Source of the DNA: Gammaproteobacteria bacterium
GTDB lineage: Bacteria > Pseudomonadota > Gammaproteobacteria > Ga0077536
DNA length: 64,000 nucleotides
Direction of reading: 5' to 3'
Assembly: GCA_020849475.1 (NCBI GenBank)
Contig: JADLGE010000023.1
Span: forward strand, 8,153 to 72,152
Shown: positions 4,300 to 28,055 of the stretch, piece after piece
Layout: each line of letters begins with the position of its first letter
Position numbering within the stretch: position 1 is the first letter of the stretch
Notes under the pieces: generated by a model
What the model was told of the DNA's origin: nothing
Databases searched by the model: none
Seen by the model: only the letters and a program-made list of their open reading frames with translations
Program-made: the position numbers and the translations under genes

Positions 4300-4599
4300 G
4301 CGCACTGCGCGTTGCGCGCGCATAACGGTAGTGCTTCACGTTTCAGCTGGCATTGCGCCAAAAACTTCGTTACGCGCGCGACGCCGCCGGCAGCACGCAG
4401 TTCATCAACGCATGCGCTTCTTTTGGTGAACACAGTCTCAGTTCATCGCGCCCAGGCGCCAGAGTGTGAATTTTTGACAGCGTCGCGTTAAGGCGCCTCC
4501 CTAGCATCGCAGCCACTCGACACCCAACCCGCGTTGCGTAGCACGCTCGCGGGCTTGGTGAACGAGCGAGGACCACGTATCAACAGGGAGTACACATCG

Positions 4600-6147
4600 A
4601 TGACTATCCGTCACTCATCTCATCACCGTCACGCCGGCACACCTTCATCACGCAATACTTTGGCCGCGGCACTGCTGCTGGCGCTCGCGCCCTCTGCCCA
4701 TGCCGTCAACGGCGTCGACCCGCAGGAAAACGTCGCGCTGCAATGGAATGATGCCGCGCTGGAAGCGATACGCATCACCCACCCCGGCCCGCCGATGGTG
4801 GCGCGCATGCTGGCGGTGTTGAACACCTGCGCGTTCGACAGTTGGGCGGCGTTCGACGCGCAGGCGCGCGGCACACGCTACGGCCGCCAGTTGAAGGCGC
4901 CGCAGAACCTGCGCACTGATGCCGCCAAGCGCGAAGCGGTCGCCTATGGCGCCTATCGCGCGGCGCTCGATCTGTTTCCGCAGCCCGAACAGCAGGCCTA
5001 TTTCCGGGCCCTGCTCGGCGAGCAGGGCTACAACCCGGACTACGCATTGCGCAATGTCACCACCGCGGCCGGCCTTGGCAACAAGGCCTGCCAGGCGGTG
5101 CTCGAATTCCGACACCGCGACAAGTCCAACCAGCGCGGCGAAATGAACGGCGGCGCGCCCTACTCCGACTGGACCGGTTATCAACCGGTCAATACGCCCG
5201 ATCAGATCAATGACCCGAATCGCTGGCAGCCCTTGCGCATCGCCGACGGCCACGGCGGCACGGTAATGCAGAAATTCATCGCGCCCCATTGGGGCCGTGT
5301 CACGCCGTTCGCATTGCGCGACTGGAACAAGGACGTCATCAAGCCGGTGCGGCGCCTGGTCAAGGACACCACCGGCCACGTCGGTCCGGTCAAGGTCGAT
5401 GACCCGGCGTACAAGGAGCAGGCCGACCAGGTCATCGCCTACAGCGCCAGCCTGGTCGACACCCAGAAAGTGATTGCCGAATTCTGGGCCGACGGACCGG
5501 CCTCGGAACTGCCGCCCGGTCACTGGAATTTATTTGCGCAGGAAGTCTCGGCGCGCGACACCCATACGCTCGATGCCGACGTGAAGATGCTGTTCGCGGT
5601 GTCCAACACCGTGTTCGACACCAGTATCGCCATCTGGGGCGCGAAGGTGTTGTTCGATTCCGTGCGTCCCGTCACCGCCATTCACTATCTCTACAACGGT
5701 CAGAGCATCCATGCGTGGGCCGGCCCCGGTCAGGGCACGCAGACGATCTCGGGTGAGAATTGGCAGCCCTACCAGGCCAGCACCGTGGTCACGCCGCCGT
5801 TTTCGGAATACCCGTCCGGACACAGCGCGTTCTCGTCGGCGGGCGCCGAGATCCTGAAGCGCTTCACCGGCAGTGATGTATTTGGCGGCGGGGTCACGCT
5901 GCCGGCCGGCAATTCGCGCGTCGAACCCGGCCAGGTGCCGGCCTTCGATCTCAGTTTGAGTTGGGCGACTTTCAGCGACGCCGCCGATGAAGCCGGCATC
6001 TCGCGGCGCTATGGCGGCATCCACTTTGTTGACGGCGATCTCGATTCACGTCTGATGGGTCGCCGTGTCGCGGCGCTCGACTGGCCGGCCATCCAGTACT
6101 ACTTCGGTGCATCGCCGGGCGGGCATGACGGTCATCACCACGACTGA
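4600..6147 (+). CDS. Secreted PAP2-superfamily protein, vanadium-dependent haloperoxidase-like
   Basis: Start refined to MTIRHSS with signal peptide AAALLLALAPSAHA. PAP2/vanadate-site motifs PSGHSAFS and SRRYGGIHFVDGD. Length of about 515 aa fits bacterial vanadium haloperoxidases rather than small acid phosphatases. Confidence 0.65.
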   Translation: MTIRHSSHHRHAGTPSSRNTLAAALLLALAPSAHAVNGVDPQENVALQWNDAALEAIRITHPGPPMVARMLAVLNTCAFDSWAAFDAQARGTRYGRQLKAPQNLRTDAAKREAVAYGAYRAALDLFPQPEQQAYFRALLGEQGYNPDYALRNVTTAAGLGNKACQAVLEFRHRDKSNQRGEMNGGAPYSDWTGYQPVNTPDQINDPNRWQPLRIADGHGGTVMQKFIAPHWGRVTPFALRDWNKDVIKPVRRLVKDTTGHVGPVKVDDPAYKEQADQVIAYSASLVDTQKVIAEFWADGPASELPPGHWNLFAQEVSARDTHTLDADVKMLFAVSNTVFDTSIAIWGAKVLFDSVRPVTAIHYLYNGQSIHAWAGPGQGTQTISGENWQPYQASTVVTPPFSEYPSGHSAFSSAGAEILKRFTGSDVFGGGVTLPAGNSRVEPGQVPAFDLSLSWATFSDAADEAGISRRYGGIHFVDGDLDSRLMGRRVAALDWPAIQYYFGASPGGHDGHHHD

Positions 6148-9875: not shown

Positions 9876-11600
9876 TCAGGCTACTTGCTGCTGCGCCCAC
9901 CAGCGGCGCACCGAGGCATTGACCTCGGCGGCGTGGAAACGCGCGACCTTGTTGCTCGGTTCGAGCGCTTCTTCGTAGAAGAAAGTCGGCAGTTCGTCGT
10001 CGGCTTCGGTGAAACCCGCGGCCTTGTTGAACTCCGCTTCCATGCGCAGCGTCTGACGACCGAGGGTACGGAACCAGTCGGTGCTGAACGCCGTGCCGCA
10101 GGCCGCGTTGATGGAGTCCACCACCATCTCGACATTGGCATTCGTCACTGAGCGGCCGAACACGCACAGACCGAGGGAATCGGCGGTCGCGCACAGGGTC
10201 TGCATTTCCATGCTGACATCGACCAGCTCATCGACGTTCTTGCCGCTGCATTCGAACTTCGGTGCGTTGCCGGTGGTGTGATCGGCGCCCTGCGCGGTGA
10301 CCATCATGGAGATGCCAGTCACTTCAATCACGCGCGGATCGTAGGCGCTGATGCCCTGCTTCTTGATCACCGGGCAGCGCGCCACCCGGTAATGCGCACC
10401 CACAGCCGCCGTGCCCTGAGCCCACAGGCGGCCGTCGGCACTGCCCGCACGCAGTTCTTCCATCACGCGCGTCAGGAAGGCCACATCGCCGAAAGGCGCG
10501 AGGCCGGCATCGAGCAACACGCCCATCATGGCGCCGGTCTCGATGGTGTCGATGCCGAGATCGTTGGCGTGCCAGTTCAAACGCGCGAGGTCGTCCGGGT
10601 CGGTGAGGCCGCAGTTGGTGCCCATGAGGCCCAGGGTCTCGTACTCCACCGGTGAGACTATCTCTTTTCCGTCAGCGTCGGCGTAGACATTGCTGCATTC
10701 GATGAGGCAGCCCGGCATGCAGGCATGGGAGGTCTCGCCACCGCGCTCGAGATTCTGCGCGCGAATGAAATCGCCGCCCATCTTCAACACGCCGTTGGCG
10801 ATATCCACCTGTCGGCCAGACGTGAAATTGTTCACCGGCAGGCCGCCGACGTGGTTGGTGTAGTCGGCCATCATGGCCGTGCCGTAATCCTTCAGCACGT
10901 TGATGGCCTCATCGGCGCGCAGCTTGGCGCCGTAGTCCTTGATGTTGCCCAGCACCTTCTTACGATCGTGAAAGGTCGGCATGCGATCGAGATCGATGAC
11001 GATGGCCTTCAGTTTCTTCACGCCCATCACCGCGCCCACGCCACCGCGCGCGGCGAGACGCGCCGGGCGCTTGTCGGTGTCGCTCATGGAGATGCCGGCC
11101 AGCAGGCCGCCATATTCACCGACAGGCCCGCAAATCGCGACGCTGACTTTCTGTCCGTAGACCTCGTGCAGCATGGCGGCCGTTTCAAACGTGCCGCGGC
11201 CGACATAGGGCGTGCCACTGGTGAATTCCACCGTGCCGTCCTTCTTGAGATACATGACGGTCCAGTCGTCGCAGCCGCCGTAGAGCGTGAAGCCGGCGAT
11301 GGAGAGCTGGCCCATGGCGAGCCCGAAAGAACCACCGGCATTGGCTTCCTTGATGCCGCCGGTCAGGGGACTCTTGCAGCCGACGCTGGTGCGGTTGGCA
11401 TTGGACCAGTTGCTGCCGGCGAAGGGCCCGGCGGAAAAAATCAGCGGATTGTCGGTGCTGAGCGGGTCGACCGTGGCGGCGCCGAGTTCGAGCAGGGTCT
11501 TGGCGATGAAATAGCGCCCGGCGTGGGCCACCTGCTCGCCGCTGAACTGCTCCTCGCGCACGCTGCGCTGGGTCAGACTGATGTGTAGGTATTTGCGCAC
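9876..11600 (-). CDS. aor: Aldehyde:ferredoxin oxidoreductase (tungsten/molybdopterin AOR family)
   Basis: 574 aa. AOR N-terminal domain (HISLTQRSVREE...GRYFIAKTLLELGA...NPLIFSAGPFAGSN...TSVGCKSPLTGG) and AOR C-terminal segments (EYETLGLMGTNCGLTDPDDLARLNWHANDLGIDTIETG). Confidence 0.85.
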   Translation of the reverse strand: MRKYLHISLTQRSVREEQFSGEQVAHAGRYFIAKTLLELGAATVDPLSTDNPLIFSAGPFAGSNWSNANRTSVGCKSPLTGGIKEANAGGSFGLAMGQLSIAGFTLYGGCDDWTVMYLKKDGTVEFTSGTPYVGRGTFETAAMLHEVYGQKVSVAICGPVGEYGGLLAGISMSDTDKRPARLAARGGVGAVMGVKKLKAIVIDLDRMPTFHDRKKVLGNIKDYGAKLRADEAINVLKDYGTAMMADYTNHVGGLPVNNFTSGRQVDIANGVLKMGGDFIRAQNLERGGETSHACMPGCLIECSNVYADADGKEIVSPVEYETLGLMGTNCGLTDPDDLARLNWHANDLGIDTIETGAMMGVLLDAGLAPFGDVAFLTRVMEELRAGSADGRLWAQGTAAVGAHYRVARCPVIKKQGISAYDPRVIEVTGISMMVTAQGADHTTGNAPKFECSGKNVDELVDVSMEMQTLCATADSLGLCVFGRSVTNANVEMVVDSINAACGTAFSTDWFRTLGRQTLRMEAEFNKAAGFTEADDELPTFFYEEALEPSNKVARFHAAEVNASVRRWWAQQQVA

Positions 11601-11703: not shown

Positions 11704-12456
11704 TCAGTCGTCGTCGATGTGCTTACGCAGTTCTATCGGCGCCACCGTACGGCGGCGCAGTTGCAGGTTGAGCAGTTCCACCGCCACCGAGAACGCCATG
11801 GCGAAATAGATGTAGCCCTTGGGAATGTGGAAATCGAGCCCTTCGCCGATCAGCGCCACACCGATCAGCACCAGGAAGGAGAGGGCCAGCATCTTGATGG
11901 TGGGATGGGCGTCGACGAAGTCCGATATCGGCCCGGACGCCACCATCATCACCGCCACCGCGATCATGATGGCCGCGATCATGATCTCGATGTCGCTGGC
12001 GAGACCGACAGCCGTGATCACCGAGTCCAGTGAAAACACGATATCGAGCACGCCTATCTGGATGATGGTGCTGAAGAAGCCTGCGTGGCCGCCGGCCGCG
12101 TTGCCGGTGTCTTCGACACCTTCCAGTGAGTGATGAATCTCGAGCGTGGACTTGGCGAGCAGGAACAGGCCGCCGCCGATGAGGATGAAATCACGGCCCG
12201 ACAGTTCCACACCGAAGACGGTCATGAGCGTGGCCTTGAGCTTCATGATCCAGGTCAGCGCCAGCAGCAGCAGGATGCGCGTGCCCATGGCGAGGCCGAG
12301 GCCAATCACGCGTCCGCGCTTGCGTTGCTCGGGCGGCAGGCGGCCGACCAGGATGGCGATGAAGATGATGTTGTCGATGCCGAGCACGATCTCGAGGAAC
12401 GTGAGGGTGGCCAACGCCACCCAGGCTTCCGGTGAACTCAACCATTCCATCGCCAA
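11704..12456 (-). CDS. TerC family integral membrane protein
   Basis: 250 aa. TerC hallmark EIVLGIDNIIFIAILVGRLPPEQRKRGR and a repeated membrane-core architecture. Confidence 0.85.
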   Translation of the reverse strand: MAMEWLSSPEAWVALATLTFLEIVLGIDNIIFIAILVGRLPPEQRKRGRVIGLGLAMGTRILLLLALTWIMKLKATLMTVFGVELSGRDFILIGGGLFLLAKSTLEIHHSLEGVEDTGNAAGGHAGFFSTIIQIGVLDIVFSLDSVITAVGLASDIEIMIAAIMIAVAVMMVASGPISDFVDAHPTIKMLALSFLVLIGVALIGEGLDFHIPKGYIYFAMAFSVAVELLNLQLRRRTVAPIELRKHIDDD

Positions 12457-13605
12457 TCAACCCTCGCTGTCCGGCGCCAGTCGCGCGCGAATCAAATCAC
12501 AGACTTCACGCACCGCGCCGGCGCCGGCGCCTGCCTGGCACACATAATTCACCGCGCGCCGCACCGCCGGCACGGCATCGGCCGGACAGCATGACAGCCC
12601 CACGACGCGCAGACCGGGCAGATCGTTGACGTCATCGCCGATGTACGCCATTTCCGCCAGGCTCACACCAAACTGCGGTGCGTATTCATCCAGCCACGCG
12701 CGCTTGTTCTTCACGCCCGGGAAATAATCGGTGATGCCGAGCTTGCGCATGCGCGCGCGCACCACCGCGCTGGTCTCGGCCGTCACCACGCACACCCGCA
12801 CGCCGGCATCGCGCAGCATGAGCATGCCCTTGGCATCGCGCGTGTCGAATTTCTTCAAGGCTTCGCCGCGGCCGTCGTAATACATGCCGGCATCGGTCAA
12901 GGTGCCGTCCACGTCGACCACCAAGAGGCGAATATCGTGGGCGGCCGTCACGCGCGGCTTGAGCAGCGCCTCGATGACGGGCCAGTCGGCCGGTTCGTCG
13001 AGCTCCGCCGCGCACTCCTCGTGCATCACGTGTACGCCTGTGCGACCGCCCAGGCGCACGCCGGTTTCATCGAGCAGGCGACGCCGCGTGAAATAGAACG
13101 CGCCGTTCTCCATCACCGTGCCGGCGAAGTCCTGGCGGCGGGGTCGATGGGCGGGGTCGTAGTTGAGCGCCTGGCCATCGTGACGCCAGAAGAAACGCTT
13201 GAGTTCGACGCCGGTCAGCAGCGAATCGAGCCCTTCACTTTCAAAGCGCGCACGCGCGGCGCGGAAATCCTCGACACGGGTCAAGGGTGAGGTGGCCTGG
13301 ATCAGGCACAGCACATCGCAGTCGACGTTCGCGGCGAGTTCCAGCATCACCGACTCGCTGCTGGCGGTGTCGGTGGCGTTGGCGGGATCGCGGTCCACCA
13401 CTTCGATGCGCGCGCCGTAGCGGGCGCGGGCGTCGGCGCGGATGTCCTCGGCGTCGGACATCACGTAGATGGCATCGAAGCAGCCCGAGTCGAGCGCGGC
13501 TTCGAGGCTCCAGGCGTACAGCGGTCGCCCGGCGATGGTGCGCAGATTCTTGCCGGGTATCGACTTCGAGCCACCGCGCAGCGGCAGCAGGGCGACCCAG
13601 CGCAT
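12457..13605 (-). CDS. neuA: Bifunctional acylneuraminate cytidylyltransferase-family CMP-sugar synthetase fused to a KdsC-type HAD sugar-phosphate phosphatase
   Basis: The real start is the internal Met of the 587-aa track ORF (MRWVALLPLRGGSKSIPGKNL = CMP-NeuAc synthetase N-terminus). The C-terminal half matches the KdsC/YrbI family (VVDVDGTLTDAGMYYD...IGDDVNDLPGL...AGAGAVREVCDLI). The start codon overlaps the upstream stop (TGATG). Confidence 0.8.
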   Translation of the reverse strand: MRWVALLPLRGGSKSIPGKNLRTIAGRPLYAWSLEAALDSGCFDAIYVMSDAEDIRADARARYGARIEVVDRDPANATDTASSESVMLELAANVDCDVLCLIQATSPLTRVEDFRAARARFESEGLDSLLTGVELKRFFWRHDGQALNYDPAHRPRRQDFAGTVMENGAFYFTRRRLLDETGVRLGGRTGVHVMHEECAAELDEPADWPVIEALLKPRVTAAHDIRLLVVDVDGTLTDAGMYYDGRGEALKKFDTRDAKGMLMLRDAGVRVCVVTAETSAVVRARMRKLGITDYFPGVKNKRAWLDEYAPQFGVSLAEMAYIGDDVNDLPGLRVVGLSCCPADAVPAVRRAVNYVCQAGAGAGAVREVCDLIRARLAPDSEG

Positions 13606-14492
13606 CAGCGCAGATGCACTCCGGGCAGGCGCTTCAGCTTGGCGCGCTGCGGGGCTTCGATGTCGAGAATGGCGGTCGGCTTGTGCGTGAGGGCGATGGC
13701 CACCGCGCGCACGTCGCGCACCAGCTTGCGCAGACCGTCGGGCTCGAGCGAGGCCGGATGATCGGTGCCCTTCCAGGTGCGGTCGAGAGTGAAATGGCGC
13801 TCCACCCAGTTGGCGCCCAAGGTCACCGCGGCGACGTCGACGGCAATGCCGAGATGGTGACCGGAGAAACCGATGTCGTTGACGCGATGGGCATAGAGCT
13901 CGCGCAGGCGCGCGACTTCCAGCAGGCACACCTGATCGAACGGCACCGGGTAGCCCGAGGTGCAGGCATACAGCACCACGCGGCCCTGCACGCCGAGGCG
14001 CTCGAGCAGGGTGACGATTTCTTCCTGTTCGGCGGGCGTGGTCATGCCCATCGAAATATGTATTTCGCCGGCGTAGTCGCGGGCCAGGAACTCCAGCATC
14101 TCGAAATGCAGGTTGCAGGCCGACGGCACTTTCAACATGTAGGGCTTGAGCGCGACCATTTCGCGCGCCGAGGTCATGTCCCACACCGAAGTCGAATAGC
14201 CGATGCCGAACTCTTCGCACCAGCGCATGAGCTGGCGATGCTGATCGGGATCGAACTCGAGGAATTCGCGGTGCTCGCCATAGGTCTCGCCATAGCTGTT
14301 GGCGGGATTGGGATGGGGCGCGTTGTATTCCTCGGGTGTCAGGAGCTCGCGGTTGCAGCGCTTCTGGAACTTGACGAAATCGGCCTTGGCGAAGCGCGCC
14401 GCCGATTCAATCAGGTCGCGGGCGATGGCCATGTCGCCTTTGTGGTTGCAGCCGATTTCGGCTACCACGCGTGGATGCGGTCGTTGGCTCAC
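13605..14492 (-). CDS. neuB: NeuB-family nonulosonic acid (sialic acid / KDN-9-phosphate type) synthase
   Basis: NeuB motif VVAEIGCNHKGDM and TIM-barrel segments (KADFVKFQKR, YMLKVPSACN). Start taken as GTG at 14492, preceded by a perfect AAGGAG Shine-Dalgarno 7 nt upstream. Alternative ATG at 14588 has no SD and would overlap the upstream gene by 76 nt. About 295 aa, apparently lacking a C-terminal SAF domain. Confidence 0.7.
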   Translation of the reverse strand: MSQRPHPRVVAEIGCNHKGDMAIARDLIESAARFAKADFVKFQKRCNRELLTPEEYNAPHPNPANSYGETYGEHREFLEFDPDQHRQLMRWCEEFGIGYSTSVWDMTSAREMVALKPYMLKVPSACNLHFEMLEFLARDYAGEIHISMGMTTPAEQEEIVTLLERLGVQGRVVLYACTSGYPVPFDQVCLLEVARLRELYAHRVNDIGFSGHHLGIAVDVAAVTLGANWVERHFTLDRTWKGTDHPASLEPDGLRKLVRDVRAVAIALTHKPTAILDIEAPQRAKLKRLPGVHLR

Positions 14493-14511
14493 TGCCCTGC
14501 TCCTTAAAATA

Positions 14512-15966
14512 TCAAGGCGCGACCTGGTCGGTCGCGCGACTGGCCGAAGCGGGCGCGCCGGCAAGGCGGCGGGCGGCTTCGGGGTCATGGATGCGAAACA
14601 CGTAGGGTGAACGGGCCTCGGCCCGCACACTGCCAAAGCGCCCGAGTTCGGCGCCGAAGCGCGCGATACGGGCATTCAGTTCGGGCACGGTCACGCCCGG
14701 GAATCGATGCGCATGGTAGGCGGCACTGTTGCGGTGGTTGGGCCTCATGCCGTTGATGCGCTTGACCAGAGTGCGGATGTTACCGGTCAGCCACGCGCGG
14801 AGCCAGGGTAAGGGCGCTGGCCGTCGCGGCGCCTGCTCGGCGTAGCCATTGGCCAGCAGCACGTCCATGACGCGATCACAGGCCAGCGCGCCATGGGTGG
14901 CGGCGAGGTGACGGTCGAACAGACGCTCACGGGTGGCGGCGTCGACCAGGCCGCGGCGACCGTCGAGAATTTCACCGAGCATGGCGCGCACCTCGTCCTG
15001 GCTGGCCGCGCAGTGGCTCAGACCATTCGGCAGGTGATAGTCGAAAGTCTCGGACCTGACCGGCATGTAGCTCACGGCCGGAGTGTCGAGCACGCTCGCT
15101 TCGACCGCCGTCGTGCAGCCGTTATGCAGCAGCACCTTGGCCGCCATCAGCCATGGCACCACGTTGCCGTGATGGGCGACCTCGACCGCCGGGCACGCGG
15201 CAAGGATGTCGCGCCACACGTCATGGTTTTCCGAGGGATGCGGGCGCAGCACGATGCGCTGGCCGGGAAACCAGCCGGCGAGACGTGGCAAAAGATCGCG
15301 GAAATGATCGTAAATCGCCTGTTGATGGGCGGCCATGCCGCGCGCGAACTCGAGACTCATGCCGCGCCCGGTGCGACTCACCTGCGCCTGCCCGTGGCCG
15401 TCGCGTTCGATGAGATTGAGCGCCGGCACGAAGTTGTTCACGAACGAAAAATTGGTGTTGACCAGGATGAAGTCGCCATAGCGCGCTTTCAGCGCCGCTA
15501 CTTCCTCGGCGAAATAGCCGCGCACTTCGGGGCGCAATTGATCGATGCGCGGGTTGCCGGTCACATGCACCGGCACGCCGTTGTAGCCTTCATAGCTCTT
15601 GAAGAACTCGGCGTCGTCCTCACCCCATGCGAACAGCCGGTCGATGACCTTGAAGGTCTCTTCCGAATAGCGCCACGCGTAGTACTCAGGCGAGGTGTAG
15701 CGCACCAGGCTCTCTTCATCCCAGGCCACGATGTCGTGGCCGAGACCGCGGATGAGATTGAGCATGAGTTTGCTCAAAGACCGCATGCTCTTGGCCAGGA
15801 ACAGGCCGCGCGGCAGATAGGGCATGGCGAAGTTGATGTAAGTGCGCGAGCCGATGATGACCGGCAGGCCGCGTTCGGCCGCCACGCACGCCAGCAGCAG
15901 CTTGGCGTCCATTTCACGCACCTGGTTCTCGACCGGAATGATGAGCGTGGACGGGCTGGCCGTCAT
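14512..15966 (-). CDS. Putative CMP-sugar-dependent glycosyltransferase (HP-motif, sialyl-/Kdo-transferase-like surface carbohydrate biosynthesis protein)
   Basis: 484-aa ORF immediately upstream of, and co-directional with, neuB/neuA (stop 20 nt before the neuB SD). Contains a His-Pro motif (RIVLRPHPSENHD) of the kind used by GT-B sialyl/Kdo transferases to bind the CMP phosphate. CDS call is confident; function is inferred. Confidence 0.5.
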   Translation of the reverse strand: MTASPSTLIIPVENQVREMDAKLLLACVAAERGLPVIIGSRTYINFAMPYLPRGLFLAKSMRSLSKLMLNLIRGLGHDIVAWDEESLVRYTSPEYYAWRYSEETFKVIDRLFAWGEDDAEFFKSYEGYNGVPVHVTGNPRIDQLRPEVRGYFAEEVAALKARYGDFILVNTNFSFVNNFVPALNLIERDGHGQAQVSRTGRGMSLEFARGMAAHQQAIYDHFRDLLPRLAGWFPGQRIVLRPHPSENHDVWRDILAACPAVEVAHHGNVVPWLMAAKVLLHNGCTTAVEASVLDTPAVSYMPVRSETFDYHLPNGLSHCAASQDEVRAMLGEILDGRRGLVDAATRERLFDRHLAATHGALACDRVMDVLLANGYAEQAPRRPAPLPWLRAWLTGNIRTLVKRINGMRPNHRNSAAYHAHRFPGVTVPELNARIARFGAELGRFGSVRAEARSPYVFRIHDPEAARRLAGAPASASRATDQVAP

Positions 15967-16129
15967 GGGAGTGAAAGCTTCATGGGCGTGGCGACTGAAA
16001 AACGGGACGGCGCGGCATCAAGGCGCGCAGTTGACCCGAATTGCCGGCGCTTGGCAACCGCTGACGCCGTTACGCCGACGGCGCGCGGCTGTGCCATCAT
16101 CCCGCGCCCGTCAGCACAGGAACGAGACC

Positions 16130-16975
16130 ATGAACCAAGCCAGCACGCCCGCTAATGAGCAGGCCGCCTACTGGAACGAGGAAGGCGGCGCACGCTGGGT
16201 GCGCCACATCGACGGCGTCGAAACCATGCTTGAGCCCTTGAACGCGCGCCTGCTGGAATGCGTGGCGGCCGCGGCCGGCGAACGGGTGCTGGATGTCGGC
16301 TGCGGCGGTGGCATCACCAGCGCGGCGCTCGCGCGCGCGGTCGGCGAGCGCGGCCACGTGACGGGACTCGATGTCTCGAAAGTCATCCTCGATGTCGCGC
16401 GCGCACGCTACGCCAGCCTCCCCAACCTCGAATTCCTGCTCGCTGATGCCGGCATGCACGCCTTCGCGCCGGCCAGTTACGACCTCCTGACCTCGCGTTT
16501 CGGCGTGATGTTCTTTCCCGCCCCGCACGCCGCCTTTGCCAACCTGCGGCGCGCCATGAAGCTTGGCGCAAGGCTGTGCTTCCTGTGCTGGCGCCGCTTG
16601 GACGAGAACCCGTGGATGGGTCTGGCCGCCGCGGCTGCCTTCAGCGTGCTGCCACCGCCGCCCCGGCCCGAGCCCGGCGCGCCGGGGCCGTTCTCGTTTG
16701 CCAAGCGCGAGCGTGTCACCGACATCCTGACGGTCGCGGGTTTCGGCAACATCGAATTCGAAGCGGTCGACCGCGGCATCGACCTCGGCAGTCTCGACGA
16801 AGCGATGACATGGCTGACGAACATGGGCCCCGCCGCGCAACCGCTGCGTGAAGCGAATGAAGATCATCGTGCGCAGGCGCTGGACGCCATGCGCGAGGCC
16901 CTGGGCAATGCGGAGCGTAACGGCCGGGTGGTGTTGAACGGCGCGACCTGGGTGGTGAAGGCGCAGGCCTCGTAG
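16130..16975 (+). CDS. Class I SAM-dependent methyltransferase
   Basis: Start refined to MNQAS (ATG 16130, AGGAA upstream). SAM-binding motif VLDVGCGGGITSAALA. Confidence 0.8.
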   Translation: MNQASTPANEQAAYWNEEGGARWVRHIDGVETMLEPLNARLLECVAAAAGERVLDVGCGGGITSAALARAVGERGHVTGLDVSKVILDVARARYASLPNLEFLLADAGMHAFAPASYDLLTSRFGVMFFPAPHAAFANLRRAMKLGARLCFLCWRRLDENPWMGLAAAAAFSVLPPPPRPEPGAPGPFSFAKRERVTDILTVAGFGNIEFEAVDRGIDLGSLDEAMTWLTNMGPAAQPLREANEDHRAQALDAMREALGNAERNGRVVLNGATWVVKAQAS

Positions 16976-22894: not shown

Positions 22895-23263
22895 AGTCGT
22901 GAAGTCCGTCAGGCTGCGCCAAGGCGCAAGGTTCGAGTTCGTGGGCATGGGGACGAGGCTTGCGCGACACCGCGCAGGGGCGGCCTCATGACGGCTGCGC
23001 GGAGGATGGGGCGCGGCACAATCAAGCGCAGGGGCAGGCGCACATGCCAAGCGCGCGCAGCGGTCATGTCACCGCTACCGGCAGTCCAGGCACGCAAACG
23101 CCGCTGAGACATAAGCCCTCCGATCGGGCGCCGTCACTGTCTCGCGTCCACGGTGGATCTGCGCTCCGCGGCGACTGACGCTCAGGGGTTAGCGACCCGA
23201 GGCTGGCATGCCTTTAATTTCGCGCGCGACACAGCATCGCGAATGGCCACGTTACAATGGCCC

Positions 23264-24361
23264 ATGACCCGAATTCTCGCTCACTACCATATTGGCGGCG
23301 TGGCCGCCGACATCGAGGCGCGCGCCGCCGCCCTCGCCCTGGAACAAAGCATCGAGATGCCGCTGACAGCGGTCGCCAGCCGCTACGTGCGCGATGAAGT
23401 GGTGGCGCGCGTCGCGAACATCCGCGCGCTCGGCCCCGCGCTGCACGAAGTGACGCTCGCTATCGCGACGGCCACCGTCGGGCGTGACATCGGCCAACTC
23501 ATGAACATGCTGTTCGGCAACTGTTCGCTGCAGGACGATGTGGTGCTGCACGATGTTGAACTGCCCGCGACCCTGCTCAGCCACTGGCGCGGACCGCGTC
23601 ACGGCCTCGCCGGCCTGCGCACACTGGTGGGCGCCGGTCCGCGCGCCTTGACCATGACGGCGCTGAAACCCCAGGGCCTGCCGGCCACCGAACTCGCGCA
23701 GCTGGCGGCCACCTTCGCCGACGCCGGCATCGACATCATCAAGGATGACCACGGCATCGCCGACCAGGACTATGCGCCGTTCGCGGCGCGGGTGGTGGCC
23801 TGCCAGCAGGCCGTGGCACGCGCCAACGCCGCCCGCGGCGGCCACAGCGTCTACGCCCCGACCCTGTCCGGCGGCCCGCGCCAGCTCGCCGCCCAGGCGC
23901 ATATCGTGCGCGAGGAAGGCGTGCGCATGGTGCTGGCCTGTCCTTTGCTGATGGGCCTGCCGGTGTTCGATGAACTGCTACGCCACGAACTCGATTGCGC
24001 GGTGCTGGCGCACCCGGCCCTGGGCGGCGCCGCGCGCATCGCGCCGCCGCTGCTGTTCGGCAAGCTGTTCCGCATGCTCGGCGCCGATGCCACGGTGTTT
24101 CCGAATCACGGCGGACGCTTCAGCTACAGCCCCGCGACCTGCCAGGCACTGGCGCAGGCCGCGCTCGCGCCCTGGCACGATTACGCACCCTGCGCGCCGG
24201 TGCCGGCCGGCGGCATGAGTGTCGAGCGCGTCGCCGAGATGCTGGACTTCTACGGTCGCGACGTCATTCTTCTCATCGGCGGCGCGCTGCTGGCGGCCGG
24301 CGACGCGCTGCCGGCGCGCGCGCGCGAATTCGTCAGCCGCGTCCACGCCGCCACGCTTTGA
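23264..24361 (+). CDS. RuBisCO-like protein (form IV RLP, RuBisCO large-subunit family)
   Basis: Start refined to MTRILAHYH. RuBisCO large-chain active-site region conserved as DIIKDDHGIADQDY (KDDH in place of KDDE) and KPQGL in place of KPKLGL. About 365 aa, too short for a bona fide RuBisCO. No small subunit or cbb genes nearby. Confidence 0.85.
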   Translation: MTRILAHYHIGGVAADIEARAAALALEQSIEMPLTAVASRYVRDEVVARVANIRALGPALHEVTLAIATATVGRDIGQLMNMLFGNCSLQDDVVLHDVELPATLLSHWRGPRHGLAGLRTLVGAGPRALTMTALKPQGLPATELAQLAATFADAGIDIIKDDHGIADQDYAPFAARVVACQQAVARANAARGGHSVYAPTLSGGPRQLAAQAHIVREEGVRMVLACPLLMGLPVFDELLRHELDCAVLAHPALGGAARIAPPLLFGKLFRMLGADATVFPNHGGRFSYSPATCQALAQAALAPWHDYAPCAPVPAGGMSVERVAEMLDFYGRDVILLIGGALLAAGDALPARAREFVSRVHAATL

Positions 24362-24871: not shown

Positions 24872-25005
24872 CGAGGCAAATGACAACGCTGCATCGGGCT
24901 CGCAATAAAGCCCTTGTGTAGACCGGCCACCGCCCCCCGTCACCGCTATTGCCGCCCCCTGCCCCACGGGCTATGTTCGCCGCTCGCAAGATCGGGGGGA
25001 GAGTC

Positions 25006-26838
25006 ATGGTCGCGCACCGCTATTGGAAGTTTTTCGCGCTGCTGGTTGCGGTGTTGGGCGGGCTGCCCGCATTCGCCGCTGGCGACGGCAAGGATGATTT
25101 GAGCCCCATCGCCGACAGCGAATGGGACCGCGCCCACGCCGCGCATCTGCTCGAACGCGCAGGCTTCGGCGGCACGCCGGCGGAAATCGACAAGCTTGCA
25201 CACATGACGCCGCGCCAGGCGGTGCGTTACCTGGTCTATTTCGAAGGTGTGGATGCCAAGGCCATCGAGGGCCAGGCCGCGTTCGATGAATCCGGCATCT
25301 TCGAGCCGGGGCTCGATCCTTTTCCGCCCAGCCGCCCAGCCACCACCGAACTCGCCAAGGCCAAGGGCGAGGCCTTGGGCGTCAAGGTCAAGGCCAGCGG
25401 CAACCGTCCCTACCAGCCGGTGGTCGACAAATTCTTCTACTGGTTACGCGCCAGTCGTCTCGAAACCGACCGCGTCGCCTACTGGTGGGCGAACCGCATG
25501 GTGTCGTCGCCGACGCCGCTGAAAGAAAAGATGGCGGTGTTCTGGCACGGCCATTTCACCAGTAGCGAAGAGAAGGTGCGTGACTACCGCAAGATGCTGC
25601 GCCAGCTCACGCTGTTCCAGGACCAGGGCCTCGGCAACTTCCGCACCCTGCTCATCGGCGCCGCGCAGGACCCGGCCATGCTCACCTACCTCGATGCCGG
25701 CGTGAACGTGAAAGGCGCGCCCAACGAAAACTTCGCCCGCGAGATCATGGAAATGTTCACCATGGGCGTCGGCAACTACAGCGAGCACGACATCCGCGAA
25801 GCGGCGCGCGCCTTCACCGGCTGGTACTACAGCGGTCTGGAATTCAAGATCGATGCCGCCAAGCACGACGACGGCGAAAAGGAATTCCTGGGCGCCAAGG
25901 GCAACTTTGACGGCATTCAGGTTATCGACCACATCCTCGCGCAAGACGCCACCAGTCAATACATCGCCGCAAGACTCTACCGTTACCTGGTGCGCGACGA
26001 GCTTTCGCCGACACTGAAAGCCGCGCTCGCCGCACGCCTGAAGACCGGCAATTACGACATCGCCGCGTACCTCGAGACGCTGTTCCTGTCTCACGACTTC
26101 TACAGCCCCGCGTCGGTCGCGACGCGCATCAAGAGCCCGGTGGAACTCGTGATCTCGACCTATCACAAGCTCGGTCTCGTGACCGTGCCGGGCGCGCCGG
26201 ACTTCAACCTCCTGACCGAGTCACTCGGCCAGCGCCTCATGCATCCGCCGACCGTCGCCGGCTGGAGCTATGGCCGCAGCTGGGTGACGCCGAGTCTCTT
26301 GATCGAACGCGGCAACTTCGCGCTCGACGTGATGTTCCCCGACATCGAGTTCATTGCCGCCGATCGCTACCCGGTCTATCCCACCGGCGACGAAATTCGC
26401 CAGGTGCACGAGCGCATACGCGCCGGCCTCGACATGACCGCCGCCACCGCGCCGGTCGCCAAGGACGGGGGCCGCGACATGATGGCAATGTCCAACCAGG
26501 TCGAGCACGCCGAGGAATTCAACACCCGCTATGCCAGCTATCGCGGCTGGCAGATGGCGATTGAACGCGTCAAGCCGATACCGCGCGATGCACCGCGCGT
26601 GGAGTTGACGCGCATGGTGATGAGCAATGAACTCGCGACGCCGGCGGCGGTGGTCGATTACTTCATCGCGCGCTTCCTGTCGGTGCCACTCGACGTCGCT
26701 ACCCGCCAGAAACTGATCGCGAGCTTCACCACCGAACTCGGCACCAGCGACGTGCTGGCGGCGGCGAGCTACATGGAAGATCCCCTGCGCTTGCTGCTGC
26801 ATTTATTGCTGAGCCGCCCCGAGTACCAGTTAGGTTGA
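25006..26838 (+). CDS. DUF1800 family protein (secreted)
   Basis: Start refined to MVAHRYWKFFALLVAVLGGLPAFAAG (signal peptide; GGGGGAGAG SD upstream). About 610 aa, typical DUF1800 size. Paired with the downstream DUF1501 gene. Confidence 0.75.
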   Translation: MVAHRYWKFFALLVAVLGGLPAFAAGDGKDDLSPIADSEWDRAHAAHLLERAGFGGTPAEIDKLAHMTPRQAVRYLVYFEGVDAKAIEGQAAFDESGIFEPGLDPFPPSRPATTELAKAKGEALGVKVKASGNRPYQPVVDKFFYWLRASRLETDRVAYWWANRMVSSPTPLKEKMAVFWHGHFTSSEEKVRDYRKMLRQLTLFQDQGLGNFRTLLIGAAQDPAMLTYLDAGVNVKGAPNENFAREIMEMFTMGVGNYSEHDIREAARAFTGWYYSGLEFKIDAAKHDDGEKEFLGAKGNFDGIQVIDHILAQDATSQYIAARLYRYLVRDELSPTLKAALAARLKTGNYDIAAYLETLFLSHDFYSPASVATRIKSPVELVISTYHKLGLVTVPGAPDFNLLTESLGQRLMHPPTVAGWSYGRSWVTPSLLIERGNFALDVMFPDIEFIAADRYPVYPTGDEIRQVHERIRAGLDMTAATAPVAKDGGRDMMAMSNQVEHAEEFNTRYASYRGWQMAIERVKPIPRDAPRVELTRMVMSNELATPAAVVDYFIARFLSVPLDVATRQKLIASFTTELGTSDVLAAASYMEDPLRLLLHLLLSRPEYQLG

Positions 26839-26849
26839 GCAAGGACATC

Positions 26850-28055
26850 ATGATGAACCGTCGCCAACTCCTCGCCCGTCTTGCCGCCCTCGGCGGTGGC
26901 CGACTGGTGGCCGGCGCCGTGCCGGGCATTTTTCAGCAGGCGCTGGCCGCCGACGGCGCGGCCAACGAGCGCATCCTGGTGGTGTTTGAAATGTCGGGCG
27001 GTAACGATGGATTGACCACCATCGTGCCCTACGCCGACGACACCTATTACAAGCTGCGCCCGCGTATCGCCATCAAAAAAGACAAACTCCTGAAGCTCGA
27101 CGACCACTTCGGCTTCAACCCTGGCATGCTCGGCATGCAGCGCCTGTGGCAGGACGGCAAGCTCGCCATCGTGCACGGCGCGGGCTATGCGCAACCGTCG
27201 TTCTCGCACTTCACCTCGATGGCTTACTGGCACACCGCCGCGCCCAATTCCGGCGATGAGTACGGCTGGTGCGGACGTCTGGCCGATACCCTGGCGCCGC
27301 AGCCGGTGCCGAATTTCCTGGTCAATGTCGACACCACCCAGAGCCTCGCGGTGCGCAGCCGCGTGCATACGCCAGTGGTGTTCGACGAGCCGGAGCGATT
27401 TACGCGCCTCGGCATGAAACAGGAACGCGAGGTGCTCGACTATGTATCGAGTTCGGCGGGTGGCAATGCGAGTCTCGAGTATCTCAACCAGGTGGCGCAC
27501 AGCGCCGATGAAGCCTCGCAGCTGGTGCGCGATGCATGGGCGAAATACAAGACGCCGATAGACTACGGCATTCTGCCGGCACAACTGCCCAAGGTTGCGG
27601 CCTGCATCGCCGCCGGCCTGCCGGCGCGCATCTACTACCTCGCGTTTCGTAACAACGCCTTCGACACCCACGTGCAACAGCCCGATCTGCATCAGCGCCT
27701 GTTGAGCTACATGGCCGACGCCATCCATGGCTTTCAACGCGACCTTGAGCGTCTCGGCGTCGCCGAGCGCGTCAGCACCATGATCTTTTCCGAGTTCGGT
27801 CGGCGCGCGCCGGAGAACACCAACGGCGGCACCGATCACGGCGCGGCCAACAATATGTTCATGGTCGGCAGCAAAGTGCGTGGCGGGCATTACGGTCAGC
27901 CGGTCAGCCTCACCACGCTCGATGAAGGCGACAACCTCATCTACACCACCGACTTTCGGCGCGTGTACGCGACCGCCATCGACAACTGGCTGCAGCCCGG
28001 CACGGCCAAGGCGGTACTCAAGGGTGAATTCGAGACCTTGCCGATCTTCGGCTGA
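26850..28055 (+). CDS. DUF1501 family protein (sulfatase/alkaline-phosphatase-like fold) with twin-arginine signal
   Basis: Tat motif NRRQLLARLAALGGG. The stop of the DUF1800 gene overlaps the start region. Conserved DUF1501 segments include MSGGNDGLTTIVPY and NGGTDHG. Confidence 0.8.
   Translation: MMNRRQLLARLAALGGGRLVAGAVPGIFQQALAADGAANERILVVFEMSGGNDGLTTIVPYADDTYYKLRPRIAIKKDKLLKLDDHFGFNPGMLGMQRLWQDGKLAIVHGAGYAQPSFSHFTSMAYWHTAAPNSGDEYGWCGRLADTLAPQPVPNFLVNVDTTQSLAVRSRVHTPVVFDEPERFTRLGMKQEREVLDYVSSSAGGNASLEYLNQVAHSADEASQLVRDAWAKYKTPIDYGILPAQLPKVAACIAAGLPARIYYLAFRNNAFDTHVQQPDLHQRLLSYMADAIHGFQRDLERLGVAERVSTMIFSEFGRRAPENTNGGTDHGAANNMFMVGSKVRGGHYGQPVSLTTLDEGDNLIYTTDFRRVYATAIDNWLQPGTAKAVLKGEFETLPIFG

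Follow-up and report, generated by a model that had tools for sequence, protein, structure and literature searches.

A putative CMP-ulosonic acid transferase of the TIGR04396 family at the head of a three-gene operon in a gammaproteobacterium

The 64,000-nt stretch of DNA considered here (the window) comes from a Gammaproteobacteria bacterium (contig JADLGE010000023.1), and our subject is the gene at 14512..15966 on its minus strand. The 484-aa product is probably a soluble or peripheral glycosyltransferase (GT) of the GT-B fold that moves an ulosonic acid, activated with cytidine monophosphate (CMP), to a glycoconjugate of the cell surface whose synthesis is encoded at another place in the genome. 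This view is based on homology to genetically characterized enzymes and on gene context, not on likeness to the known sialyl- or Kdo (3-deoxy-D-manno-oct-2-ulosonic acid)-transferase families. An earlier examination of the letters alone (the sequence-only reading) had proposed that the protein consumes the CMP-sugar made by the genes downstream. The proposal is supported by homology to transferases of Tannerella forsythia (PMC5420450) and by linkage to NeuB and NeuA, from which we infer the function.

The gene itself is genuine. Its open reading frame (ORF) starts with the ATG at 15966 and ends with the TGA at 14514-14512, its codon usage (G+C of 0.81 at third codon positions vs. 0.47 at second) is typical of genuine genes in the window, and it has thousands of homologues, which align starting at residue 1-8. 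The product had been called unannotatable, without obvious family motifs, and a candidate novel transferase. It is neither unannotatable nor without family motifs, nor is it novel in the sense of unclassifiable. Although a Pfam scan of the protein gives no match, the NCBIfam model TIGR04396 ("surface carbohydrate biosynthesis protein") matches it essentially end to end, at residues 8-437 and profile positions 1-426 of 427 (375.4 bits vs. a cutoff of 125; E 4.4e-112). The protein is thus an additional and ordinary member of a known, named and biochemically uncharacterized family, and its close homologues are already called 'surface carbohydrate biosynthesis protein' in public sources. On sequence comparison it is also homologous to, but outside, a second NCBIfam family, NF046086 ("BFO_1060 family glycosyltransferase"), which it matches over residues 9-335 at 64.3 bits vs. 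a cutoff of 200 (E 1e-17). All of 106 diverse family members match both models, the best NF046086 E-value being 8.8e-32.

The family is large: 4,497 representatives of 50%-identity clusters are found at E <=1e-3, and 1,216 at E <=1e-30. The closest relatives of the protein come from metagenome-assembled genomes (MAGs) labelled Steroidobacteraceae, Panacagrimonas and unclassified Pseudomonadota. The bin and taxon labels around this lineage look unreliable: one locus (L002, CAMCBY010000111.1; the loci compared are cited by L numbers) encodes a protein 87% identical to that of the present high-GC locus and was deposited as a 'Klebsiella pneumoniae' MAG, and other close relatives carry the labels Methylibium or Burkholderiales, beside those labelled Steroidobacteraceae or Panacagrimonas. 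Neither the protein nor a 123-sequence profile found anything in sequence searches of the PDB beyond spurious ankyrin and 14-3-3 matches. A literature search on TIGR04396, on nonulosonic acids in Nitrosomonas and on newer transferase families brought up nothing specific, and the papers found mention no numbered CAZy family for TIGR04396 or NF046086 members.

The relatives that bear most on function are BFO_1060, Tanf_01245 and TFUB4_00887 of T. forsythia, which are candidate transferases for derivatives of pseudaminic acid (Pse) and legionaminic acid (Leg; PMC5420450). When their genes are deleted, the protein O-glycan lacks its terminal nonulosonic acid while the pool of fully modified CMP-Pse or CMP-Leg stays intact (PMC5420450). 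The enzymes were first noticed through a TagB-like domain, they add a single terminal residue, and an HP and a D/E-D/E-G motif were noted in them by the authors (PMC5420450); the definitions of the two motifs, as that paper cites them, are those of Freiberger (2007). Besides being homologous, they and our protein are cytoplasmic, free of transmembrane segments, furnished with an HP motif and a motif resembling D/E-D/E-G, and encoded beside a CMP-nonulosonate pathway. The differences are that our protein belongs to another subfamily (its 64 bits fall well short of the 200 demanded by the NF046086 model), is about 40 aa longer owing to a basic C-terminal extension, and is paired with a NeuB lacking a SAF domain and a phosphatase-fused synthetase rather than with a Pse or Leg pathway. 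In T. forsythia the acceptor is N-acetylmannosaminuronic acid of a protein O-glycan.

The genes that follow provide the second line of evidence. It had been read from the sequence that neuB comes directly after the gene, with the stop codon 20 nt ahead of the neuB Shine-Dalgarno sequence. The adjacency stands, and the distance does not: a NeuB-family gene is indeed next on the same strand (13605..14492, minus; PF03102 at 3.5e-65), but its Shine-Dalgarno sequence AAGGAG (14500..14505, minus) lies only 6 nt past the stop codon, and its GTG start, at 14492, 19 nt past it. The 295-aa product, an ulosonic acid synthase without a SAF domain, scores under the equivalog cutoffs for NeuB and PseI, has as its best PDB match the 290-aa protein 6ncs, and is 63-95% identical across syntenic loci. 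The ATG of the third gene (12457..13605, minus) overlaps the neuB stop codon (TGATG). It encodes a CMP-ulosonate synthetase (CTP_transf_3) fused to a KdsC/YrbI-type phosphatase of the haloacid dehalogenase (HAD) class, in whose translation the motifs DVDGT and GDDVND are intact. The best PDB matches of the cytidylyltransferase are 'PpNeuA' 9t4z and mouse CMAS 1qwj, and BT1713-type phosphatases are also among the best matches. The view that our gene heads an operon with CMP-sugar genes is thereby upheld.

The second and third genes of the operon resemble a 9-phosphate route of the eukaryotic kind. Both the vertebrate NANS/NANP/CMAS pathway and the KDN (deaminoneuraminic acid) pathway of Bacteroides thetaiotaomicron combine, as the window does, a NeuB-type synthase, a phosphatase of the KdsC or KDN-9-phosphate type and a cytidylyltransferase, all the scores of the window genes being below the equivalog cutoffs. 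In vertebrate CMAS the order of domains is that of the window fusion, an N-terminal synthetase followed by a C-terminal KdsC-like domain; the window HAD domain differs in retaining the catalytic DxDGT and GDDxND. Given the translational coupling and the intact phosphatase, synthesis, dephosphorylation and activation would form a route complete in itself, in which a consumer is all that is wanting.

What surrounds the family members elsewhere agrees with such a consumer. Neighbors were located by tblastn from defined seeds at 81 loci from GTDB genomes, and in about 45 of the 81 the order of our gene, a short NeuB gene and a NeuA-HAD gene is kept; these loci belong to Gammaproteobacteria, Nitrosomonas, Nitrosospira, Burkholderiales, Myxococcota and Methylomirabilota. 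When linkage is counted at the 50 loci that have at least 5 kb on both sides, NeuB or NeuA is found within 1.5 kb in 36 and within 10 kb in 39. More distant members adjoin other types of NeuB and cytidylyltransferase. What stays constant is therefore the partnership with a CMP-ulosonate pathway, whose chemistry varies; this would be expected of an enzyme recognizing the CMP donor. The arrangement has also been recorded in Herbaspirillum seropedicae AU14040, where neuABC is followed by a TIGR04396 protein (PMC6679464).

Some loci are informative in a further respect. True NeuC homologues (30% identical to E. coli K1 NeuC; E 1e-40 to 1e-47) share loci L026, L030, L033, L037 and L038 with family members; in the first four, canonical NeuB and NeuA accompany the NeuC homologue, and L038, at a contig end, has the NeuC homologue only. 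On a plasmid of Azospirillum thermophilum the family member is surrounded by a full set of legionaminic acid genes (LegB, LegC, NeuC/LegG, acetyltransferase, nucleotidyltransferase, cytidylyltransferase and NeuB). Since a true NeuC or a complete Leg pathway is present in the same loci, a biosynthetic role for the family member is argued against.

Other features of these neighborhoods are recorded here in their own right. In Nitrosomonas europaea a 749-aa protein combining CBS, NeuB, SAF and a xylose-isomerase-like TIM barrel is encoded next to a distant family member (L056:7563-9812, plus), and at L027:12339-13991 (plus) and L046:9522-11090 (plus), again beside distant members, NeuB is fused to a cupin/lyxose-isomerase-like domain in the company of GFO/IDH/MocA oxidoreductases. 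These odd fusions suggest ulosonic acid pathways that are uncharacterized. Some genomes have a second TIGR04396 copy far from NeuB and next to GT61 genes, which fits several transferases sharing one donor. Two MAGs, CAXXLL01 (L021, L033) and JADZEE01 (L034, L042), carry two paralogues. A GT61 gene (PF04577) directly follows the family gene in L021, L026, L037 and L038; NeuB and NeuA are absent within 10 kb in L021 and are 7-9 kb away in L026 and L037. Finally, a phospholipase D (PLD)-like protein of 350-360 aa (PF13091 PLDc_2, with weak similarity to NucT/ClsB) is encoded near the TIGR04396 gene in 26 of the 81 loci, for example at L073:8884-9975 (plus) and L046:5983-7041 (plus), and is absent from the window. 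At most of these loci its gene immediately precedes the family gene in the same orientation; a few have it on the opposite strand, close behind the family gene, or 3-5 kb upstream of it. The loci are those of Nitrosomonas, Nitrosospira, Deltaproteobacteria, Myxococcota, Methylomirabilota and Lysobacterales, and between phyla the protein remains 50-66% identical. It may have a part in making or modifying the acceptor.

The predicted structure is of the GT-B kind. An AlphaFold2 model built from a 53-sequence alignment (pLDDT 91.5, pTM 0.90) has the two Rossmann domains of the GT-B fold, and a non-glycosyltransferase fold, which would have spoken against a transferase, was not obtained. The strands of the N-terminal Rossmann domain are residues 7-12, 36-40, 54-58, 78-82, 110-113 and 133-135. 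A linker helix leads to the C-terminal Rossmann domain, which has an insertion at about 172-232. The customary C-terminal helix returns to the N-domain and is followed by an extra extension of helices and a beta-hairpin (residues 385-470; 14557..14814, minus). The extension holds 17 K/R vs. 5 D/E; its conservation, 0.32, is below that of the core, and it might serve in binding the membrane or the acceptor. No transmembrane segment is present anywhere in the protein. Mean column identity is 0.51 in the N-domain and 0.48 in the C-domain, so that the two are equally conserved.

Conservation of motifs was measured in 126 diverse members that are 33-56% identical. Residues conserved in 95-100% of them are E13 and R17-E18 of the first loop, E84-E85, W114-G115, the motifs GNPRxD and RPHPxE, C284 and E289. 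The His-Pro motif that had been singled out as lying in a Rossmann-like context is there: R241-P242-H243-P244-S245-E246 (15229..15246, minus) stands where strand 237-242 of the C-terminal Rossmann domain ends, within the peptide RIVLRPHPSENHDVW (residues 237-251), H243-P244 being encoded at 15235-15240. Nor is it lost in homologues: RPHPxE is found in practically 100% of the 126 members, and an Azospirillum member only 29% identical retains it together with W114, TGxPRxD and SSTAIEA. In low-probability hhalign alignments the motif falls on KPHPKE of NeuS, KPHPD of KpsC and HHP of KpsS. A second motif of the C-domain, H281-N-G-C-T-T-A-V-E289 (15100..15126, minus), passes from strand to helix and is likely to bind the nucleotide; its C284 and E289 are 98-99% conserved, and E289 aligns with E296 in the DSGGIQEEA motif of WecB.

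The N-domain contributes two motifs. Directly after strand 78-82 comes D83-E84-E85-S86 (15709..15720, minus), a putative variant of the D/E-D/E-G motif and a candidate for the general base. E84 and E85 are 98% conserved, and the variants of residues 83-86 among the 126 members are DEEG in 54, DEEA in 39, CEEG in 18 and DEES in 7; a catalytic role for DEES is presumed. At the end of the domain is G137-N138-P139-R140-I141-D142 (15541..15558, minus). The GNPRxD pattern is seen in all eight of the commonest variants listed, which account for 112 of the 126 members, and G137, N138, P139, R140 and D142 are each at least 95% conserved. In a low-confidence hhalign run the motif aligns with TGNxxID of WecB.

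These elements can be put together in a plausible scheme. The SAF-less NeuB homologue would condense phosphoenolpyruvate with a sugar phosphate, plausibly mannose-6-phosphate or N-acetylmannosamine-6-phosphate, the KdsC-type HAD domain would take off the phosphate, and the fused cytidylyltransferase domain would yield the CMP-sugar, most likely that of KDN or sialic acid. The C-terminal Rossmann domain of our protein would then bind CMP. The phosphate leaving group may be contacted or protonated by H243 of RPHPxE, and E289 may hold the ribose. E84/E85 of the N-domain motif DEE(G/A/S) would activate the hydroxyl of the acceptor, as inverting sialyltransferases of the GT-B fold do. Gene structure, family membership, fold, motif conservation and linkage are established; the identity of the donor, the roles of the residues, the stereochemistry and the acceptor are what we infer here. 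On the acceptor there are hints: with both Rossmann domains equally conserved, a basic C-terminal extension and no other glycan genes, it could be a conserved molecule produced outside this locus, possibly a membrane lipid or the lipopolysaccharide (LPS) core. When 34 large ORFs spread over the 64 kb were scanned with Pfam, no further glycosyltransferase, polymerase, flippase or exporter came to light, in agreement with the earlier remark that no polymerase or exporter is nearby.

How the protein relates to known GT-B enzymes was less well anticipated. The sequence-only reading had likened it to enzymes of the KpsC/KpsS, WbbB and GT52, GT80, GT99 or GT107 types. We find no Pfam membership in Capsule_synth, polyST or TagF, hhalign probabilities of 1-9% against KpsS, KpsC and NeuS, and no structure of the numbered families named among the Foldseek matches listed. 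Foldseek was run against the PDB with the full model and with the C-domain alone, and 50 matches were listed for each. All 50 listed for the full model are GT-B proteins, and GT38, GT52, GT80, GT99 and GT107 structures are absent from those listed for either query. In the Pfam scan of the 106 members, the weak, sub-threshold matches are spread over the GT-B clan. They include Capsule_synth (PF05159, GT107) in 8 members (best E 0.0065), LpxB in 8, DUF6716 (NeuE) in 3 (best E 2.6e-4) and, very weakly, polyST (GT38) in 2 (E 0.3); our protein itself has no Capsule_synth match. Single E. coli sequences (NeuC, NeuS, NeuE, KpsS and KpsC) gave hhalign probabilities of 0.1-9%, a comparison too insensitive for ranking families (NeuS 2.7%, KpsS 1.2%, KpsC 8.9%, NeuC 0.2%), and between the TIGR04396 family and NeuE hhalign found nothing. 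K1 NeuE of E. coli UTI89 (L083:28473-29621, minus) is itself now placed in Pfam DUF6716 as a 'putative glycosyltransferase'. Of the sialyltransferase families, the direct comparison covered GT38, and the listed Pfam and Foldseek matches include neither GT52 nor GT80.

The GT-B sialyltransferases (NeuS of GT38, GT52, and PmST1 of GT80) share with our protein the fold, the expected CMP-sugar donor and an HP motif, which comes after strand one of the domain that binds the nucleotide; the acidic N-domain motif may correspond to their D/E-D/E-G. They differ in that there is no sequence-family membership, and that the GNPRxD and R-E motifs of our N-domain resemble more the epimerase/MurG/LpxB branch. 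The retaining enzymes WbbB (GT99), KpsC/KpsS (GT107), KpsS1 (GT118) and KrkA (GT140) use a CMP-ulosonic acid, as our protein would, and have HP in the equivalent position. Retaining Kdo transferases carry an Asp nucleophile in a motif of the QxxxKD type, and no such motif is among the family residues conserved at 85% or more. This lack separates them from our family, as do the low hhalign scores, the missing PF05159 match and their absence from the Foldseek matches listed. The protein therefore represents a separate GT-B lineage, outside GT38, GT52, GT80, GT99 and GT107. Its scaffold looks closest to the epimerase/MurG/LpxB branch, with the HP signature of enzymes using CMP or CDP (cytidine diphosphate) donors.

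It should be noted that several observations weigh against a transferase. The Foldseek matches of the full model are headed by UDP-GlcNAc (uridine diphosphate N-acetylglucosamine) 2-epimerases (E 5e-9; TM-score 0.55-0.61 on our protein), with PimB' and TagF about 1.5 orders of magnitude behind. With the C-domain alone, epimerases (E 3.5e-5) are mixed with GT1 enzymes, GtfA and WaaC. The leading families among the weak Pfam matches are DUF354 (14 of the 106 members) and Epimerase_2 (10, all sub-threshold, best E 7.8e-4; our protein has none). The protein has DEES where the D/E-D/E-G motif would call for DEEG. NeuB and NeuA are not nearby in 11 of the 50 well-flanked loci, and no acceptor-related gene is among the large ORFs of the window scanned with Pfam. 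In the literature and databases, we found no in vitro assay and no solved structure of a TIGR04396 or NF046086 member. Lastly, SpsB of Bacillus subtilis carries DEG and HP motifs in a TagB domain and is encoded beside a Leg pathway, yet is dispensable for Leg transfer (PMC7439481); motifs and location can thus mislead.

Because the best structural matches are epimerases, we treat as the main rival a nucleotide-sugar 2-epimerase or hydrolase like NeuC, WecB or PseG (also GT-B proteins), which would supply the NeuB substrate as the first step of the pathway. The position of the gene, first in an operon that has no other gene making this substrate, would suit such an enzyme, and in both Foldseek searches the top listed matches are of this type. 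WecB and NeuC (PF02350) are the nearest solved folds and have a similar TGNxxxD motif. With E. coli WecB, hhalign gives a probability of 87%, confined to the C-domain, and places H243 on the active-site H213 and E289 on E296. Outside the C-domain the resemblance fades. For the N-domain no alignment of useful confidence results: our family reaches 4% with a six-sequence epimerase profile and 0.2% with E. coli NeuC. In the low-confidence full-length alignment with the former, WDEEG falls on HVEAG (E117 of WecB) and GNPRxD on GNTVID. The catalytic acidic residues of E. coli WecB are D95, E117 and E131. The second of these possibly pairs with E84/E85, a counterpart to the segment around D95 is missing, and the N-domain has no confident match to the three.

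Further evidence goes against an epimerase. No Pfam or NCBIfam epimerase model matches our protein at threshold, so that by no curated model is it a family member. The 106 members match 27 NCBIfam families, and the 25 of these that were listed include no epimerase family. In T. forsythia, mutants in the homologous genes still produce the mature CMP-sugar, which puts the function of these relatives after CMP activation. TIGR04396 members occur in the same loci as genuine NeuC/LegG and complete Neu or Leg pathways. The intact phosphatase points to a phosphorylated sugar of central metabolism, which needs no epimerase, unlike the product of a hydrolyzing epimerase. Also, the exact HP is typical of enzymes with CMP or CDP donors, whereas WecB has H-x-N-P at this place. 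An epimerase is therefore in our judgment unlikely.

We give somewhat less credence still to a phosphotransferase like TagB/TagF, or another GT-B enzyme using a CDP-alcohol or a nucleotide-sugar donor, that would decorate the same glycan without moving the ulosonic acid. TagF is found among the listed Foldseek matches at rank 50, weak matches to Glyphos_transf (PF04464) occur in 8 of the 106 members (best E 0.0047) and to TarB in one, the TagB-like domain first drew attention to the T. forsythia relatives, and SpsB is a precedent for a TagB-domain protein beside a Leg pathway that need not transfer Leg (PMC7439481). But our protein has no PF04464 match, the T. forsythia mutants lose precisely the nonulosonic acid, and neither the operon nor the conserved module has a gene for a CDP-alcohol or other donor, the sole activated product encoded being a CMP-ulosonate. 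A polymerase building an ulosonic acid homopolymer or capsule in the manner of NeuS, instead of adding single residues, is the most improbable of the three: RPHPSE resembles KPHPKE of NeuS and two members show the faint polyST match, but NeuS aligns poorly with hhalign, ABC or Wzx/Wzy exporters and KpsS/KpsC-like primer genes are missing from the window and the conserved module, and the characterized relatives add one terminal residue.

The remaining features of the locus can be described briefly. Between our gene and a divergent methyltransferase gene (ATG at 16130, plus) is an intergenic region of 163 bp (15967..16129) that presumably holds the operon promoter; a search there for the sigma-70 consensus gave no match, and the promoter was not located. 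A gene for a TerC-family membrane protein (11704..12456, minus; PF03741 at 1.3e-46) begins 0-6 nt after the NeuA-HAD stop codon and is possibly co-transcribed with it. TerC is found downstream only in the nearest relatives (L002, L003 and L036). TerC and the methyltransferase were considered as parts of the module and rejected, both being kept only in the nearest relatives. An 8-bp GC-rich hairpin at 14517-14537 (minus), followed by CTTGATATTT, overlaps the last codons and stop of our gene just ahead of the neuB Shine-Dalgarno sequence. It was rejected as an attenuator between the two genes: 3 such sites are found vs. 2.9 expected in shuffles, and the z-score of the fold is -1.2.

Farther away, the window encodes a vanadium-chloroperoxidase-like protein (4534-6147, plus; DUF6851 and VCPO_2nd), an aldehyde:ferredoxin oxidoreductase (9876-11600, minus), a RuBisCO-large-chain-like protein (23153-24361, plus) whose Pfam match is partial only, and a DUF1800/DUF1501 pair (24949-28055, plus). 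In the syntenic locus L001 the gene after the RuBisCO-like one is called as Cupin_2, and the corresponding ORF of the window is at about 24.4-24.8 kb.

In closing, we offer a broader view, tentatively and as something that may well prove otherwise. TIGR04396 and NF046086 together could form a distinct and unclassified family of CMP-nonulosonic acid glycosyltransferases that came from the epimerase/MurG-like branch of GT-B proteins, independently of GT38, GT52, GT80 and the retaining Kdo and Pse transferases. Here the family would be represented in a minimal three-gene module that makes CMP-KDN or CMP-sialic acid by a eukaryote-like 9-phosphate route. The acceptor to which the module attaches this sugar would be a conserved one, for instance a membrane lipid or the LPS core, and not a variable O-antigen. 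Three things hint at this view: the N-domain is unusually well conserved, the C-terminal extension is basic, and the PLD-like partner recurs. Knowledge of the enzymes that attach nonulosonic acids to surface structures other than flagella is scarce (PMC5420450), and as of 2020 no bacterial enzyme was known to transfer legionaminic acid to cell surfaces (PMC7439481). Our gene in itself is no surprise, and the NCBI pipeline already names it generically. The family, however, is a worthwhile target, being widespread in environmental bacteria, cultured nitrifiers included. The three-gene module of the window is about the simplest context available, and would be a convenient minimal system for studying the donor sugar, the roles of H243 and E84/E85, and the acceptor.

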